A DNA stretch of 15,257 nucleotides from Promethearchaeota archaeon (GTDB lineage: Archaea; Asgardarchaeota; Lokiarchaeia; Sigyniarchaeales; SOKP01). The stretch is from assembly GCA_016930515.1 (NCBI GenBank), contig JAFGGO010000185.1, positions 1-15,257 on the forward strand. Reading direction: 5' to 3'. Positions 1-7,629 of this stretch are shown piece by piece. Below the pieces are notes generated by a model, which made no database searches, was not told the origin of the DNA, and worked only from the letters and a program-made list of their open reading frames with translations. How positions within the stretch are numbered: position 1 is the stretch's first letter; each line of letters starts with the position of its first letter. The position numbers and the translations under genes were made by a program.

Positions 1-1678
1 CGACGATATGGTAGAAATGAACAAGACAAACAGGAGCGTTAAAATAAATATATCTCCTAAAGAAGAGTTTTGGGGCCATTGCTCAAATCTAAAAGCGTGG
101 GCCGAAAACAACTACGACTCGAGGCTTCTCCACAGGAACTTGGCGTTCCCGTTGCTCAAGCAACTAACCGAAGAAGGCGATCCAATTGCGAAAAAAGCCT
201 ATAAAGACGAAATTGCTACCCGAATAAAGGAAGGAAATTTAAACGTGGCATTGTTCTTGGTTAAGGGACGCTATTTAAACGATTTCACGATAGAGGAACT
301 CGAAACGCTTTCCAATTCGGTGAAATCGAAGGAAATGCAACTCGTCATTAACGGCGTGAGTCACGACGCACCCGCAGGATTTTACGATAATATAAGCCAA
401 CTAACCGAAGTTCTTGAACTTGTTCAATGGGGATTAGAAAACGATGCACCCTTGGTTTTTTATAAAAATATAGATAAGACAAAAGAGGACGCGAAATTTG
501 CCAAGTGGGGGGTAAAAAATAAGCTCCCTCGATCATTTTTTACGTGTTTTGATCAGGTAAGACAAGACACGGAGCTTGCCAAATTTGGCAGGAAACTGAA
601 CGCTCCAGATTTTTTCTATAAAAATTTTGATAAATTAAGCGAAAACATTGAACTTGCTCGATGGAGCTTGGAGAACGGAGCTCTGGGGAGTTTCTACGAT
701 AACTTTGAAAAATTAGATAAAGACGTGAATCTCGTAAAATTGGGCTTGAAGAGCGGAGCTCCGGGGGATTTCTACTATAAATTCGAGAAATTACTTGAAG
801 ACGTGGAACTCGCAAGGTGGGGACTAGAACACGACGTGCCAAAAGAATTTTATTCGAGATTTGAACACATACGCCAAAACATTGAACTTGCTCGATGGGG
901 CGTAAACAACGAAGCACCAAGCGATTTCTTTAAATTTTTTTATTCATTAAAAAAGAACACATCTCTCGCTAAATGGGGCGTGAAAAACGGCGCGTCGTAT
1001 GAATTTTACGCGTATTTCGATAAAATCTATAAAAACATCGATCTTGCCAAATGGGCAGTGCTTAATGAAGCTTCGTGGATCTTTTGTAAATATCTTAGCG
1101 AAATGGAGAAGAACGTGGAGCTTGCGAAATGGGGCGTCAAGCACGGCGCCCCTGGAGGTTTCTTTTACAAGTTTAATTGGGTAAGAGAAAATGCAGAAAT
1201 TGCAAAGTGGGCCGTCGAAAATCGAGCTCCAGGTTATTTTTTTGAGCATCTAGATAAGATGATGGAACACTTGGAAGTGGCAAAAATAGGTGTTTTGAAC
1301 GAGGTGCCGTTAAAATATTTCATGAGCCTTGATACGCTAAAGGAGGATATTGAGCTTGCGAAATTGGGCGCACAATGTAAAGCACCTGCTGCTTTTTACG
1401 TGCATTTTGATGAGTTATGTAAAGATCGAGTCCTTGCGATATTTGCCGCAGAACACGAGGCAGCAGCCGGATTTTACAAGCATTTCGATAAAGCAAAAAG
1501 GCATGGCGATCTCGTAAAATGGGGAATTGAAAACAAGGCACCAACTAAATTTTACGAGAATTTAGCGAAGATTTCCAGGAATTCTTCCAATATCGATTCC
1601 ATTCGCATGTCTGCTGAAAAAAAAAAGGAATTTTTACGCATGTTTTCCAAAAATGATACCAGTGAAATGGAGGAATAA
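1..1678 (+). CDS. 5'-truncated protein: conserved 'EEFWGHCSNL' head domain fused to about 15.5 tandem 26-aa helical repeats
   Basis: ORF 8..1678 is open to the window edge (c-gac-gat-atg = ..D-D-M, matching 'IDDL' at aa 54-57 of the paralog at 2724), so the real start lies upstream. By hand alignment, aa 15-101 match aa 71-157 of ORF 2724..3497 without gaps (57/87 identical). The remainder is tandem repeats. Confidence 0.85.
   Translation, partial: DDMVEMNKTNRSVKINISPKEEFWGHCSNLKAWAENNYDSRLLHRNLAFPLLKQLTEEGDPIAKKAYKDEIATRIKEGNLNVALFLVKGRYLNDFTIEELETLSNSVKSKEMQLVINGVSHDAPAGFYDNISQLTEVLELVQWGLENDAPLVFYKNIDKTKEDAKFAKWGVKNKLPRSFFTCFDQVRQDTELAKFGRKLNAPDFFYKNFDKLSENIELARWSLENGALGSFYDNFEKLDKDVNLVKLGLKSGAPGDFYYKFEKLLEDVELARWGLEHDVPKEFYSRFEHIRQNIELARWGVNNEAPSDFFKFFYSLKKNTSLAKWGVKNGASYEFYAYFDKIYKNIDLAKWAVLNEASWIFCKYLSEMEKNVELAKWGVKHGAPGGFFYKFNWVRENAEIAKWAVENRAPGYFFEHLDKMMEHLEVAKIGVLNEVPLKYFMSLDTLKEDIELAKLGAQCKAPAAFYVHFDELCKDRVLAIFAAEHEAAAGFYKHFDKAKRHGDLVKWGIENKAPTKFYENLAKISRNSSNIDSIRMSAEKKKEFLRMFSKNDTSEMEE
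368..1582 (+). repeat. Intragenic tandem repeat with a 78-nt/26-aa period: 15 full units plus a partial 16th
   Basis: Units start at 368 + 78n (unit 1 GCA at 368, unit 16 GCA at 1538) with no indels. Consensus is approximately APxxFYxxFDKLxxNIELAKWGVENx. Confidence 0.92.
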
Positions 1679-1680
1679 GA

Positions 1681-1845
1681 TTGGCAAAGAATGAGTTCAA
1701 GGTCAACGACCACATCACAATGAACTTAGAAAGTGGAAAAACGATCATTTATGTGAGTGGCTAGATCTTTAAGCAGTGCAAGTAGTTCGCGCTTGATGTT
1801 CAGCTGGATGAAGTTCGAAAATTCGACGATCGTGCGCGTGTATGA
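1681..1845 (+). pseudogene. Degenerate, truncated N-terminal fragment of a third paralog of the head-domain family
   Basis: Reading from TTG at 1681 gives (M)AKNEFKVNDHITMNLESGKTIIYVSG*IFKQCK*FALDVQLDEVRKFDDRARV*, colinear with MQPHEFKVNDYITLKLEGRKTNIYLNGTLFQQCKYLAFNISLESIPDYD (ORF 2724). DNA 1693-1718 matches 2736-2761 at 25/26. TAG stops at 1762 and 1783. GGAGG at 1669-1673 lies upstream. Confidence 0.85.
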
Positions 1846-1860
1846 CCTTTAAGTTGGAAT

Positions 1861-1893
1861 AAGTATAAATATATAATTATACTATCAATACTT
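1861..1893 (+). promoter_or_regulatory. TATA box with an overlapping inverted repeat; putative autoregulatory operator of the toxin-antitoxin operon
   Basis: TATAAATA at 1864-1871 ends about 22 nt before the GTG at 1894 (leaderless geometry). AGTATAA (1862-1868) and TTATACT (1877-1883) form an inverted repeat, with another ATACT half-site at 1888-1892. Confidence 0.55.
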
Positions 1894-2130
1894 GTGATAA
1901 TAAAGAGGAAAATCGGACCAAAAGGTCAAGTAGTAATTCCAAAGGATATTCGGGAAATTCTCCACATCCTTCCTGGAAGCGACGTCTTAATTGAATTAGT
2001 TGGAGAAGAGATAATCATCCGTGCGGCAAGGAATAAGGAGGATTTTTTAGAGAATTTTACAAAAACGGACAAGAAATTAGAAGAAAAAATCGATTATAAA
2101 AAGCTCCTCGACGAACAATATGACCGATAA
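1894..2130 (+). CDS. vapB: AbrB/MazE/SpoVT-family DNA-binding antitoxin (VapB-type)
   Basis: Signature KIGPKGQVVIPKDIREILHILPGSDVLIELVGEEIIIR; 78 aa; overlaps the downstream PIN gene by 11 nt. Confidence 0.9.
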   Translation: MIIKRKIGPKGQVVIPKDIREILHILPGSDVLIELVGEEIIIRAARNKEDFLENFTKTDKKLEEKIDYKKLLDEQYDR

Positions 2131-2545
2131 TAAAGAAACGATGTACATCGATGCTAACGTCTTTATCAACAATATCCTGTACGATGTGAGTAAAAACATC
2201 GAGGCTCAACGATCCAACGATTTTCTCAAGAAAATAGTCCAAGGCGAAATCGTAGGCATCACGTCTGCCTTGACATGGGACGAATTTACCTGGATCGTAA
2301 AAGTCAATTTAGGAAGGGAAGTATCGATAATAAAAGCAAGGGAATTTCTCGTTTTTCCTAACTTGTTTATCAAAAACATCACGGTATCGTCGTTAATAAA
2401 AGCCCAAGAGATCATTACTTCTTACAACGTCCGTCCAAGAGACGCCATTCACGCTGCTTGTGCGCTAGAAAATAACGTTCGCGTTATTTGTAGTTTTGAC
2501 GCTGATTTTGACTTGATAAAAGAAATTACAAGGGTAGAACCTTGA
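2120..2545 (+). CDS. vapC: PIN-domain ribonuclease toxin (VapC family)
   Basis: YIDANVFI, TSALTWDEF, RPRDAIHAACA and SFDADFD carry the four acidic PIN active-site positions; 141 aa. Confidence 0.92.
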   Translation: MTDNKETMYIDANVFINNILYDVSKNIEAQRSNDFLKKIVQGEIVGITSALTWDEFTWIVKVNLGREVSIIKAREFLVFPNLFIKNITVSSLIKAQEIITSYNVRPRDAIHAACALENNVRVICSFDADFDLIKEITRVEP

Positions 2546-2666
2546 AAAGTCGGAAATAATTCGAATATTGAAGAAACAGACGAATTCTTGCACCTGAGGA
2601 TTATAGCGTCGCGCGGTTTAATTGAACGCAACCCGCTCTCCGTTGATTCAGTTTTTAACCAGATGG

Positions 2667-2676
2667 TTTTATAAAG
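2667..2676 (+). promoter_or_regulatory. Candidate TATA box for the LRR gene
   Basis: TTTTATAAAG about 48 nt upstream of the ATG at 2724. Confidence 0.35.
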
Positions 2677-2723
2677 CGCCACACGTTTTTCTCCTTGCGA
2701 AGATATGGACTTAAAAAAGAATC

Positions 2724-3497
2724 ATGCAACCGCACGAGTTCAAGGTCAACGACTACATCACGCTCAAGCTGGAAGGAAGGAAAACCAATATCTATTTGAA
2801 TGGCACATTATTTCAGCAATGTAAATACTTGGCCTTTAACATCTCTTTAGAGAGCATTCCTGATTACGACGCAATCCTATCCATCGACGACCTTGAGGAT
2901 CGAGATCGAGGTGTCGAATATGAAAAATTGGATATCGCCCCCGAAGAAGAATTTTGGGGGCATTGCTCGAACCTCCAAGCGTGGGTCGAAAACGAGTACG
3001 ACATTCGCCTGCTTCATCGAACCCTGGCGTTTCCGTTGTTGAAAGCACTCGCGAACGCGGGCGATCCCGTTGCGAAAAAAGCGCTCAAGAGCGAAATTGC
3101 CTCAAGGATCAGTTCGGGCAACGAAACGATCGTGAACTACTTGGTAGAAGGGGGATACTTGAATCACTTTACCGCGGACGAATTGACATCCTTGTTTCCT
3201 GACATGGAGCACGTGATGCGAAACGGAATCCCAATACCAGTGATTGCAGGGATCTTGCGATTGAGCGAGAAAGGCGTGAAGGACTTGAGCGAACTAGAGG
3301 GATTACTCGAATTAAAACTATTAAAAAAGCTATATTTAGGAGATAATCAATTACACTCCCTCCCCGAATGGCTTGGCCAGCTTCAATCGCTACAATGGTT
3401 ATATTTACAGAATAATCAATTACAAGCCCTCCTAGATTCGAGTGCGAATACAACATTTAAAGAATTGAAAAAGAAAGGAATATCGATTCAATCTTAG
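2724..3497 (+). CDS. Leucine-rich repeat protein with the conserved 'EFKVN...QCKY...EEFWGHCSNL' N-terminal head domain
   Basis: Head domain at aa 1-157, shared with ORF1 and the pseudogene. C-terminal LRRs: ILRLSEKGVKDL (degenerate), LKKLYLGDNQLHSLPEWLGQLQS and LQWLYLQNNQLQAL (LxxLxLxxNxL, 23-aa period), then a cap KELKKKGISI. Confidence 0.88.
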   Translation: MQPHEFKVNDYITLKLEGRKTNIYLNGTLFQQCKYLAFNISLESIPDYDAILSIDDLEDRDRGVEYEKLDIAPEEEFWGHCSNLQAWVENEYDIRLLHRTLAFPLLKALANAGDPVAKKALKSEIASRISSGNETIVNYLVEGGYLNHFTADELTSLFPDMEHVMRNGIPIPVIAGILRLSEKGVKDLSELEGLLELKLLKKLYLGDNQLHSLPEWLGQLQSLQWLYLQNNQLQALLDSSANTTFKELKKKGISIQS

Positions 3498-3631: not shown

Positions 3632-4126
3632 TTATTTGAATGGATTTGGCAACCATTTTGGCGTGGTGGATTTATATTTCAGCCATTCTTTTCCAAATAT
3701 TTTTTCGAGTACCTTTTCTTCGTGATTTACGAGCTTGTTGTAAATCGCAAAAACAACCACAAAGAACACCACGCAAATCAACGACATCGAGAGAAAGACG
3801 AAAGCAACATATATCAATAATACCCCTAAATATAGTGGATTTCTCACGCGTTTGAGAATTCCGCTGGTTATCAGCTTGTTTGAAGGAGTATCGTGCTTGA
3901 AGAGTTGTTTATGCGAAATATTCATTAGGGCAAAAGCAAGCAAAAGCGTCGCCGCGAATAAAACGATCCTTAAAGCAAGGGGCACGTAATCGTTGAGCCA
4001 CGTCGTCCATTGCAGGGCGATACCATCTAAAATCCAGACCACGACGAATAATATCGGAAGTAATGCTTGAATGAGGTGTCCATGGGGATGTTCCCTTTCA
4101 GAATGCGAAAATTCCTCTATTTCCAT
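3632..4126 (-). CDS. Isoprenylcysteine carboxyl methyltransferase (ICMT/Ste14)/PEMT-family membrane methyltransferase
   Basis: Several TM helices; LITSGILKRVRNPLYLG and HEEKVLEKIFGKEWLKYKSTTPKWLP are the family motifs; SD AGGTGA lies 8 nt upstream of the ATG. Confidence 0.88.
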   Translation of the reverse strand: MEIEEFSHSEREHPHGHLIQALLPILFVVVWILDGIALQWTTWLNDYVPLALRIVLFAATLLLAFALMNISHKQLFKHDTPSNKLITSGILKRVRNPLYLGVLLIYVAFVFLSMSLICVVFFVVVFAIYNKLVNHEEKVLEKIFGKEWLKYKSTTPKWLPNPFK

Positions 4127-4370: not shown

Positions 4371-5411
4371 ATGCCATTTACGATAAAAAACATCATCGTC
4401 AGTCGCCTATTCGTGCTCTTGGCGATCTTCGTCGTTCCCGTTGCGATTTTCTTGATCTTTAATGTAACCGATTTTAGTGTGTGGTGGTCGAATGATCCAG
4501 TTTTAAGCGCAATTATCGTCAAGTTCCTAACACCTTTAACTTATGCCGTGTCTTGGTTTTATTTCTTGATCTTGTTTGCAAATCGTTTTGCAGATACCAT
4601 CGATTCCATGGAAAAGCACACCAATATCATCCCATTGCGCTTGAAAATATTTTACGGCATCAACGCCTTATTCGTTTTGTTTGTTTTCGTATTTCCCTTG
4701 ATCACCCCGTTAGTGTCTATCTTGAGCTTTGCGTCCATGATGTGGCAATTAACCACCTTTAAAAAATCAAATTGGGACGAAAAGCAAAAAGTTCCGCTCA
4801 TAACAAAGATACTCGCCGTTGCTGCCGCTATTTTGCCAATCTTTTGCACGGCAAGCATTGCTCCCGACTACCTGGAACTTCCCATATACCTCTTCCAGAG
4901 CGTGTGGGTTCCCCTTCTCGATCTCGTCATGATATTTTCCTATTGTCTTTGCACGGCTTTAGCAATAGGATCCTTGTTGGTCTTATTTGCCAATAACGGA
5001 GTTAGTGAATACGAGCAACTGTGGTCCGACCCAAAACGAGATCAAACCATGCTTTATATCGCCATTTTGGAAATATTGATAACTATTGGGCTCATGGTCC
5101 TTGCTTATGCCAACGAATTGACAGGTAATTATCCCATCATCGACCTTTTCTACAACCTTGGATTCGTCATAGTGTTGATCGTGTCCATCGTGAATTTTTT
5201 CACGGGCAAGAGCAAGAACAAGAAATTCAGGTCTCACCTCTTGGGTTATATCCTTGCTGCCGTTTTTATGGGCTCGAACTTGTTTATTTACGACATAGAA
5301 TTGACTATTGTCTCGGAATGGGTAAGAGTTATCAGTCTAAATGTGCTGGCAACCGTTTTCATTGCCGTATTCCTATATACTTTCGTGAAGATGGAAGAAT
5401 CTGAGTTTTAA
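4371..5411 (+). CDS. Hypothetical polytopic membrane protein (about 9-10 TM segments)
   Basis: 346-aa ORF of alternating hydrophobic stretches and short charged loops (KKSNWDEKQK, EYEQLWSDPKRD, GKSKNKKFRSH). No family motif recognised. Confidence 0.8.
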   Translation: MPFTIKNIIVSRLFVLLAIFVVPVAIFLIFNVTDFSVWWSNDPVLSAIIVKFLTPLTYAVSWFYFLILFANRFADTIDSMEKHTNIIPLRLKIFYGINALFVLFVFVFPLITPLVSILSFASMMWQLTTFKKSNWDEKQKVPLITKILAVAAAILPIFCTASIAPDYLELPIYLFQSVWVPLLDLVMIFSYCLCTALAIGSLLVLFANNGVSEYEQLWSDPKRDQTMLYIAILEILITIGLMVLAYANELTGNYPIIDLFYNLGFVIVLIVSIVNFFTGKSKNKKFRSHLLGYILAAVFMGSNLFIYDIELTIVSEWVRVISLNVLATVFIAVFLYTFVKMEESEF

Positions 5412-5615: not shown

Positions 5616-7046
5616 ATGAGTGAAAAGGTACCTAAGAACGAATTCTTGATCATTGACGAAGAAGGGGAAATTGAGGGAGAAGAAGGGGGAGAAGAAGAAG
5701 CTGAGGACGAGGAAGTAGAGGAAAGGGACAAGAAGGGGCTTTCGGCAGATGAGATAGACCAGAGAAGGAGGAAAAACGAGCAACTTAAAGATAGACGAAA
5801 AAAAGAAAGAGAAAAAAAAGAACAGGATAAAATTAGAATCAAGGGAGAGATCAAGCAACAGGTAATAAAATTATTGAACAAGGGAAAAATATCCTCCAAG
5901 GAATCGTTGACGAATCTACTTATTAAGGCAGGTATAAAGGATTACTATTATAAAACCAACCTACTTACGAACCAATTAAAACCCGAGATCGAGCACATTG
6001 GCGCTTCGCTGAAGGAATTACGGTTCGACAAGGAGGTTAACTTTCGAATCGTTGATGGTGCACACGTGTACTACAAGAAAAACTTGAAAAAGGAAGTAAA
6101 ATCGAAAAAGCATAAAGCCGAGCTTAATTGGAGATCATATAAAATTCCAGAAGGGAATAACGAGATACACGTGATTTTAAAGATCCCTGGCAGTTATACG
6201 GATTCTCGGCACTTTCTTTCCAGTTGTTTTCCACAAGCGCGATTTTGGGGTTTTACAATCACCGTGGATAAGAAATATAACGAAACTCACGGATTTAAAA
6301 TAATTAGCGAAAACATCCTCGGACGTTTCGATGGTGACATGCTTTTAATATCGTGTCGAACGAGCGAGGAAGGAGCCGATAAGACACTTTACAAGCTGAT
6401 CCAAATTGGTCGCAACATTATTGTGGAATTGATCAAGTTAAATTGGCGATATTCAGAATTTCTAGTTATAAACAACCTCAACGACACGATTTTCATCCCC
6501 ACCATAATAATATTCAGGGCAAGAGATAGGAAAGCATTTTACGAGACCAAATTTGTAAATGCCTTGAGAATAGTCTACGATTTTCCACAGAAATTCGATA
6601 AAAAGGACGTGTTTGGAAAATACTCCGTCCTCTCGAAAGAACAGAAGGACGATCAGTTCGACTTGAAGTCTTATTACGAGTTCATTCACGCAGGTTTTTT
6701 ATTCCAAACTAAATCGTTCCTCACGAACGCCATATTAAACGATTGGATCATTAATCCCACGAAAGTATTGAATTACACTGAACAAGACGAAGATATGACC
6801 AAGCTTATCAAAGAATACGCCCAAGACATCGAAACAGACAGGATTATTAAGGAACGATTGGAAGAAAAGATGCAAAAAGGCGAGTTTTTGAAAGAGATGA
6901 CGACCAACCTGTTATTAACGCTCTTGGGCGTTTCGTTCTGGGCGGACACGCCTTGGTTGCAGGGTGGCGTTATCGCCGTCTTCATATCCATTAATATCTT
7001 CTATGTATATTTGAGGGCAAAACGAACCAAGAAGAAAGTATTTTAA
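5616..7046 (+). CDS. Hypothetical protein: acidic N-terminus, charged helix, possible winged-helix domain, soluble core, two C-terminal TM helices
   Basis: 476-aa ORF. E/D-rich aa 14-38; K/R/E-rich aa 39-78; C-terminal NLLLTLLGVSFW and WLQGGVIAVFISINIFYVYL followed by a basic tail RAKRTKKK. Confidence 0.8.
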   Translation: MSEKVPKNEFLIIDEEGEIEGEEGGEEEAEDEEVEERDKKGLSADEIDQRRRKNEQLKDRRKKEREKKEQDKIRIKGEIKQQVIKLLNKGKISSKESLTNLLIKAGIKDYYYKTNLLTNQLKPEIEHIGASLKELRFDKEVNFRIVDGAHVYYKKNLKKEVKSKKHKAELNWRSYKIPEGNNEIHVILKIPGSYTDSRHFLSSCFPQARFWGFTITVDKKYNETHGFKIISENILGRFDGDMLLISCRTSEEGADKTLYKLIQIGRNIIVELIKLNWRYSEFLVINNLNDTIFIPTIIIFRARDRKAFYETKFVNALRIVYDFPQKFDKKDVFGKYSVLSKEQKDDQFDLKSYYEFIHAGFLFQTKSFLTNAILNDWIINPTKVLNYTEQDEDMTKLIKEYAQDIETDRIIKERLEEKMQKGEFLKEMTTNLLLTLLGVSFWADTPWLQGGVIAVFISINIFYVYLRAKRTKKKVF

Positions 7047-7098: not shown

Positions 7099-7629
7099 TC
7101 AAGACATTTTCGAGTTTTGAAGCATGAGGCGTGTTAAACCTTCAAAAGTCTCGTTTACATTTTCTCCCGACTTACTACTGCATTCGATAAATCCATCTAC
7201 TCCGCGGGATTTGGCGATATTTATACCTTCCTCGCTCGATACTTCTCTTGCGTCTTCTAAATCGGCTTTTCCACCCACGACGAGTAGCGGGAACTTGTTG
7301 TCTTGTCGTCGCTCCTTGTTCACGACTATCATCCAATCGTCGATGTGAGCAATTGAGGAATAATTAGAAACATCGTACATAAAAAGTCCACCATTAGCGC
7401 CTCGCACATAAGAGGGTAACAAAAATCGAAACCTTTCTTCGCCCCCAAAATCCCATATTTGCAGTTTTACTTTCTTGCCATCGACCACCAAGCTTTTGAC
7501 TTCGAAATCGATACCAATGGTCATTTTTGAGTCTGATTTAAACAAGTTTGTTAAAAATCTCTGTGCTAAAGTGGTTTTTCCCGTCCCTGCATCCCCAAAT
7601 ATTATCACTTTGAATGTTGCATCGTACAT
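7099..7629 (-). CDS. Ras-superfamily small GTPase, Rab-like (Asgard eukaryotic signature protein type)
   Basis: G1 GDAGTGKT, G2 MTIGIDF, G3 WDFGG, G4 variant GKAD, G5 ECSSK; RabF-like motifs IGIDF, KLQIW, RFRFLL, YVRGA, FMYDVS; no C-terminal cysteine. Confidence 0.93.
   Translation of the reverse strand: MYDATFKVIIFGDAGTGKTTLAQRFLTNLFKSDSKMTIGIDFEVKSLVVDGKKVKLQIWDFGGEERFRFLLPSYVRGANGGLFMYDVSNYSSIAHIDDWMIVVNKERRQDNKFPLLVVGGKADLEDAREVSSEEGINIAKSRGVDGFIECSSKSGENVNETFEGLTRLMLQNSKMS

Follow-up and report, generated by a model that had tools for sequence, protein, structure and literature searches.

The window considered here, a stretch of 15,257 nucleotides from the genome of a Promethearchaeota archaeon of the order Sigyniarchaeales (contig JAFGGO010000185.1, referred to below as C63), comprises one whole contig of an assembly of 190 contigs, 4.0 Mb and 35% GC. 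Its first 3,497 nucleotides hold, all on the plus strand, two genes and a dead gene fragment that share a protein domain of about 155 residues, called the head. This domain defines a real, large, unnamed and lineage-restricted family, whose members join the head to leucine-rich repeats (LRRs), tetratricopeptide repeats (TPRs), GTPase domains and other modules.

The head-gene cluster

The first gene, ORF1 (2..1678), reads open to base 2. Its start is missing at the contig edge, so that the window holds head residues ~55-157 alone (the FWGHCSN helix and the helical unit that follows it; bases 2..310, placed by tblastn and the head alignment A1). Another contig, C4, is open at its 3' end (C4:12571-12699), which codes for head residues 1-43, and C63 picks up in frame near residue 57. 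The two are probably neighbours across a gap of ~36 nucleotides, with the C4 end as the missing N-terminal part of ORF1, although they share no exact overlap. Downstream of the head, residues 105-520 of ORF1 (320..1567) form 16 tandem repeats of exactly 26 residues each, without insertions or deletions, that were recognized by register analysis (identity at lag 26 of 34%) and have a consensus of about ELAKWGVxNxAPxxFYxxFDKLxxNI. The repeat has no Pfam match; the C58 head and those of 7 database homologs are likewise followed by it.

The second gene, ORF2724 (2724..3497; 257 residues), carries a complete head at residues 1-157 (2724..3194), delimited by an AlphaFold2 (AF2) model, alignment A1 and residue conservation. 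Its short tail consists of about three 23-residue LRRs (residues ~174-242, bases 3243..3449). Over residues 177-236 the tail exceeds the Pfam cut-offs for LRR_8 (29.9 bits against 27; E 4.8e-7), LRR_4 (29.4 against 27) and LRR_1 (21.6 against 20.6), and is by Pfam's criterion that of a leucine-rich repeat protein. The initial annotation had proposed that ORF1 and ORF2724 share a head that aligns without gaps as far as ...YLNxFTxxELxxL and then gives way to unrelated tails, and this was borne out by both tblastn and BLASTP. The heads are 64% identical over 90 ungapped residues (tblastn, E 4e-39), with 62/114 identities by BLASTP (E 4e-38) and 58% identity when the ORF1 head is set against residues 55-157 of ORF2724 (tblastn); the likeness stops just past the motif named.

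A third head sequence lies directly after the ORF1 stop codon, at bases 1681-1827, and was found by its match to residues 1-49 of the ORF2724 head (45% identity, E 2e-11 in a search of the window). It spans 49 codons, with two in-frame TAG codons and no continuation, and is thus a short N-terminal remnant and not a whole dead domain. Between this remnant and ORF2724 lie two genes outside the head family: an AbrB/MazE-type, vapB-like antitoxin gene (1894..2130, plus strand; PF04014, E 1.5e-10) and a vapC-like gene for a PIN-domain toxin (2120..2545, plus strand; PF01850, E 6.2e-16). The two overlap by 11 nucleotides and form a VapBC-type pair (1894-2545), which possibly took the place of most of the middle head gene. 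The three head copies counted in the initial annotation were therefore all detected, but the ORF1 head is truncated, the third is a stump of residues 1-49, and the copies are interrupted by the toxin-antitoxin pair.

Dead copies and age of the cluster

Other broken heads are found outside the window. A second dead N-terminal fragment, with in-frame stop codons, lies at C18:15788-15967 on the minus strand, and the ortholog of ORF2724 in a congener (G242:C169:4080-4778, minus strand, 74% nucleotide identity) has in-frame TAG codons at the positions of Tyr35 and of the invariant Trp87. One TAG of the window fragment also falls at the Tyr35 position. Head copies interrupted by TAG are most likely pseudogenes. 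Recoding of TAG, as for pyrrolysine, was considered and is unlikely: the window fragment ends at 49 codons, and the congener's copy has TAG at an invariant Trp and is also substituted at the conserved Pro104.

The helical part of the ORF2724 head is 68% identical to the copy on contig C3 and 66% identical to that of ORF1, and in general the three copies in the window are about as distant from one another as from copies elsewhere in the genome. The cluster must for that reason be old, and by sequence divergence its members are old paralogs rather than recent tandem duplicates. The dead fragments and the TAG-broken ortholog fit the birth-and-death mode of evolution that had been suggested for the cluster.

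Anatomy and conservation of the head

When 21 heads from the source genome are aligned (A1), mean column identity is ~49% and the consensus reads EFKxNxYITLKLExxxTxIYVNGxxFxQCK ... SIDE ... PEEEFWGHCSNLQAWxExDYDTRLLHxNLAFPLLKKLxExGDxxAKxxFKDEIAKRxxSG....YL...GYL.YL..EEL. Three parts can be distinguished. The first is a four-stranded beta meander that ends in an almost invariant Cys (QCK), the second an acidic, flexible linker in which a SID motif is invariant, and the third a bundle of helices in which the nearly invariant EFWGHCSNLQAW comes first and one HEAT-like repeat unit last. The AF2 model computed from A1 (pLDDT 80.7, pTM 0.72) shows four short strands at residues 4-30, a poorly modelled linker at 39-63 and six helices at 73-157.

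The last ~55-60 residues (profile positions 95-154) constitute a family-specific helical repeat unit that is amplified in about one third of homologs, with up to 7 copies per database protein, and that stands in tandem on contigs C167, C58 and C158 of the source genome. Repetition was never observed for the first ~95 residues, which are the most conserved part of the domain. Like HEAT and ARM repeats, the unit is a predicted helix-turn-helix element found in tandem arrays; it is longer than a HEAT repeat, has no Pfam HEAT or ARM match, reaches a Z score of at most 3.5 in structural alignment and, unlike the repeats of those families, is preceded by 95 residues of non-repeat sequence.

Among 257 full heads taken from diverse clusters, several positions are close to invariant: C33 (98%), H80 (96%), C81 (96%) and H98 (91%), together with S82 (99%), N83 (98%), W87 (99%), Y92 (100%) and R128 (98%). 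H80 is lost in 7/7 heads that lack the beta meander. This coupling of H80 loss to meander loss, along with the Cys/His make-up of the set, suggests a metal site that bridges the two sub-domains, in which C33, H80, C81 and H98 would hold a putative structural metal, most likely zinc, and so fasten the beta meander and the helical bundle to each other.

Searches for known relatives

The head gave nothing in Pfam (E<=1), NCBIfam, PADLOC or a profile search of Protein Data Bank (PDB) sequences, and the only NCBIfam match was confined to the LRR tail; the initial annotation was right in expecting that it would be unannotated. Foldseek comparison of the head model with the PDB yielded no match at E<1. 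Exhaustive structural alignment (VIA) got no further than Z 3.5, the matches over residues 72-160 being generic alpha-solenoids (among them HOPS, Pex8 and GID/CTLH components), and a second pass peaked at Z 3.0. Within the ESM Atlas, models with the same fold (TM 0.78-0.80) come from Promethearchaeota clusters only, in proteins that are hypothetical or are annotated as LRR or Ras/Roc GTPase proteins; a feature search of the same resource with the head gave no usable match.

The names borne by homologs in their source records ("hypothetical protein", "Rab family GTPase", "leucine-rich repeat", "tetratricopeptide") derive from the partner domains, and no recurrent precomputed Pfam family among the homologs is able to cover the head. 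No description of the domain was found in full-text literature searches, which included its motif string. The initial annotation had likened the arrangement to F-box, BTB and SOCS substrate adaptors. Kinship with these receives no backing at the level of sequence, since no such Pfam family was matched at E<=1 in ORF1 or ORF2724, nor was any present among the families listed for 150 homologs. On the side of structure, a single row for KLHL22 (Z 2.8) appeared in the VIA alignment.

Family size and taxonomic range

In the source genome there are 20 head-bearing genes on 18 contigs, in addition to the dead fragments. A profile search of 1.84 billion representative sequences recovered 2781 clusters (at 50% identity) with E<=1e-3, of which 1773 remain at E<=1e-30, and the homologs come from Promethearchaeota metagenome-assembled genomes and the Loki's Castle metagenome. 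This provenance, taken together with the Ras-family and Roadblock matches of the source genome, agrees with a Lokiarchaeial Asgard archaeon. Range was counted across GTDB species genomes. The head is present in 96/102 genomes of the home family and in 5/11 genomes of two sister families of the same order, but in 0/7 genomes from other orders of the class and 0/158 from the rest of the phylum sample; the number of matches per head-bearing genome runs from 1 to at least 31. The statement in the initial annotation that the head is highly expanded in Lokiarchaeia thus stands as to expansion, which is strong by both the gene count here and the number of clusters, but is too broad as to range, which among the genomes searched narrows to one order and mostly to one family.

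LRR proteins and small GTPases are exceptionally numerous in Asgard genomes. One conserved, unnamed domain ties a large share of the LRR, TPR and GTPase proteins together within one order of Lokiarchaeia, and the discovery of its partner or activity would place dozens of orphan proteins per genome in one pathway. Since the head is restricted to a single order, it bears more on lineage-specific innovation than on eukaryote ancestry. A family of 2781 clusters is large enough to justify a model of its own in Pfam or InterPro. A 2026 preprint survey describes the function of Asgard LRR proteins as unresolved (PMC13734099).

Partner domains and tail exchange

The head keeps varied company in the source genome alone. 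It precedes LRRs in seven genes, follows them on contigs C34, C56 and C126, and flanks them on C41. It also stands before TPRs (C58), after a Ras/Roc GTPase domain (C67) and after a gelsolin repeat (C158), and some heads have tails that match no family. Among 150 representatives from the database, LRRs were found in 68, TPRs in ~11 and Ras domains in 9. When architectures were assigned to 252 homologs, 74 had a head with unknown or no partner and 55 a head followed by its own repeat; a GTPase domain preceded the head in 40 and followed it in 5, an LRR region came after the head and its own repeat in 29, and LRRs followed the head directly in 27. Long members add WD40, Rho_N/SAP and DUF4240 domains and a Rad51/KaiC-like domain. 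The scans of homologs turned up no recurrent enzymatic partner, and non-repeat Pfam matches are rare (the Rad51/KaiC-like PF08423 in two long homologs, GCV_H in one).

Position within the chain is also variable. The head may be C-terminal or internal, two-head proteins exist, some heads stand nearly alone in proteins of 160-200 residues, and single chains with head, LRRs and GTPase domain together (P0104, P0290) are rare. The "constant head" of the initial annotation therefore holds good as a conserved module but not as an N-terminal one, given that it follows a GTPase domain in ~40/252 homologs.

Exchange of partners can be followed on a quick FastTree phylogeny of 325 heads, for which tails were called crudely and some proteins are partial, so that the counts are rough. 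GTPase fusion accounts for at least 13 state changes on the tree (51 with shuffled labels) and LRR association for 53 (82 when shuffled), and the GTPase domain lies before the head in 46 cases and after it in 8. Even so, the tree shows stable sub-families together with repeated swapping of tails. The notion of exchangeable repeat tails, put forward from the window alone, is supported by the many tail types and the constant breakpoint.

Constraint on the head and on its partners

The head is better conserved than the GTPase domains and the ORF1-type tails attached to it. In 41 GTPase-head proteins all 35 invariant columns lie within the head, and pairwise identity averages 67% in the head (73% in its helical part) as against 40% in the GTPase domain. 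Likewise, in proteins of the ORF1 type the head is 54-60% identical and the tail 32-43%. Such stronger constraint argues against the head being a mere linker or cap.

The fused GTPase domains are themselves often degenerate. Many lack the canonical P-loop (Lys/Ser), DxxG (G3) and NKxD (G4) motifs (alignment A4), and the source-genome GTPase-head gene L006 (C67:7990-9114) has GR in place of GK in the P-loop. By these motif losses, domains fused to the head may be pseudo-GTPases. The protein on C67 matches Ras, Roc and Arf but not COR, and has a disordered linker of ~30 residues between the GTPase domain and the head. Ras-family genes, of which the source genome has 72 matches, are not enriched near head genes: one lies within 6 kb of 2/20 head loci, where ~5 would be expected.

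Possible functions of the head

The leading reading, held tentatively at somewhat less than an even chance, takes the head for an autonomous and probably metal-stabilized docking module by which diverse scaffolds and switches would all reach the same partner. The head would be the constant part of a modular family, and would connect LRR, TPR and WD40 repeats, the 26-residue repeat of ORF1 and its own helical repeat to a single partner or location in the cell. Gelsolin domains and Ras/Roc-like GTPases or pseudo-GTPases would be brought to that place by the same means, and the choice of cargo would fall to the tail. In favour of it are the lack of any known family that matches the head, the expansion of the family, the near restriction of its partners to interaction repeats and switches, the stronger constraint on the head, the repeated exchange of tails on the head tree and the conserved Cys/His set.

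Several observations weigh against this proposal. No recurrent neighbour gene family was found around the 20 head loci. Of the 16 Roadblock matches in the source genome not one is next to a head gene: the closest lies 3.4 kb away from the C67 head gene, and TBP and other genes intervene. The AF2 model of a GTPase-head fusion (pTM 0.54) has no confident contact between domains. The run of ten consecutive conserved residues that includes His-Cys could equally mark an active site, and the last ~55 residues of the head behave as an ordinary repeat unit, so that part of the domain is solenoid.

A more ambitious version of the docking proposal is rather doubtful. It would make the head the docking or catalytic core, with a new Zn/Cys-His fold, of a signalling network specific to Lokiarchaeia that is built on one hub. 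Dozens of LRR, TPR and WD40 scaffolds, GTPases or pseudo-GTPases and actin-binding modules would be wired to that hub, and the network would be an independently evolved archaeal counterpart of the F-box and BTB adaptor systems.

The head might instead be a small Cys/His enzyme or effector, using C81 or C33 with H80 or H98, for which the tails recruit substrates; the principle, though not the fold, would be that of the IpaH-family ligases, in which LRRs are combined with NEL. Conservation of C33, H80, C81, S82, N83, Y92 and R128 at 96-100% in the 257 heads would suit such an activity, as would the conserved run FWGHCSNLQAW, which spans both faces of its helix. The greater conservation of the head relative to the fused GTPase domain points the same way, and the prevalence of binding and switch modules among its usual partners is what an active head would lead one to expect. 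This is nevertheless unlikely: the searches turned up no resemblance to a catalytic family or fold, half of what is in any case a small domain is taken up by a repeat unit, and complete heads exist in which C81 is replaced by Ala or Ser, or in which H98 is replaced.

Somewhat less probable again is homotypic assembly, with the head acting in the manner of Death/CARD domains, bacterial effector-associated domains or the COR dimerizer. GTPase-head proteins would then pair with head-LRR or head-TPR proteins to make up a split, ROCO-like switch and sensor. The presence of heads at the termini of GTPases and of LRR/TPR proteins in one genome is what such pairing would call for, and both the rare single-chain head-LRR-GTPase proteins and those with two heads are in keeping with it. 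The genes, however, are dispersed and not paired, and no similarity to Death-fold or COR domains was detectable. Prediction of a complex of two heads returned a score of 0.01, which gives no answer and counts neither for nor against self-association.

On another, quite improbable account, the head lacks a function of its own and is the N-terminal cap or nucleus of an alpha-solenoid peculiar to the family, which became joined to other repeats at a later stage. This account draws on the recurrence of profile positions 95-154 in homologs and on contigs C167, C58 and C158, and on the fact that the weak fold matches of residues 72-160 are all to alpha-solenoids. It does not explain the first ~95 residues, never repeated and the most conserved, nor the heads that abut LRRs directly, sit C-terminal to LRRs or GTPase domains, or form nearly the whole of a small protein. 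The objection that the head is an N-cap therefore holds for its last ~55 residues only, these being the amplified repeat unit.

Least probable is an immune-type receptor repertoire of NLR/TLR kind, as the initial annotation had entertained, in which LRR tails sense and the head signals: the many paralogs, variable LRR tails, pseudogenized copies and toxin-antitoxin pair in the cluster would fit it, but PADLOC returned no defence-system match (its one match was of a generic TPR model to the C58 tail), Pfam scans of the 20 paralogs and ~170 homologs found no STAND/NACHT NTPase or known effector domain, the loci have no conserved defence neighbourhood or defence-island context, and the GTPase or gelsolin domains of many members point to cell-biological signalling.

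Comparison with known modular systems

The docking proposal finds its closest parallels in the FBXL, BTB and RhoBTB substrate adaptors of eukaryotes. These too are large paralog families in which a small constant domain is combined with modules that can be exchanged (LRRs, other repeats or atypical GTPases) and is better conserved than its partner. The head, however, has no sequence match to F-box, BTB or SOCS domains and no Foldseek match to a solved structure at E<1, and no candidate hub of the Skp1/Elongin/cullin type was identified; it also differs from F-box and BTB domains in being sometimes C-terminal or internal and in carrying a Cys/His set.

ROCO proteins (LRR-Roc-COR) resemble the head family in their combination of LRRs, a Roc/Ras-like GTPase and a third conserved module, and the GTPase-head fusions have Pfam Roc matches. 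In the head family, by contrast, COR was not detected, the LRRs and GTPase domain are mostly on separate proteins, and the GTPase domain is often degenerate. In the IpaH/SspH effectors LRRs are joined to a helical domain (NEL) that has a conserved Cys, as in head proteins, but the head has no similarity to NEL, is half its size and includes a beta meander, and its carriers are cytoplasmic archaeal proteins rather than secreted effectors.

Other genes of the window

Downstream of the cluster, a gene for a membrane methyltransferase of the PEMT/ICMT family (3632-4126, minus strand) is convergent with ORF2724. A paralog of it lies within 6 kb of another head gene (C89:17894-18520), which may be due to chance. 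In eukaryotes, prenylated GTPases are among the substrates of ICMT-type enzymes. Next come two genes without a family match (4371-5411 and 5616-7046); one product is a multi-pass membrane protein, and the other, of 476 residues, begins with an acidic stretch rich in Lys/Glu and ends in a membrane helix. A stand-alone Ras-family GTPase is encoded at 7099-7629 on the minus strand, 3.6 kb downstream of ORF2724.

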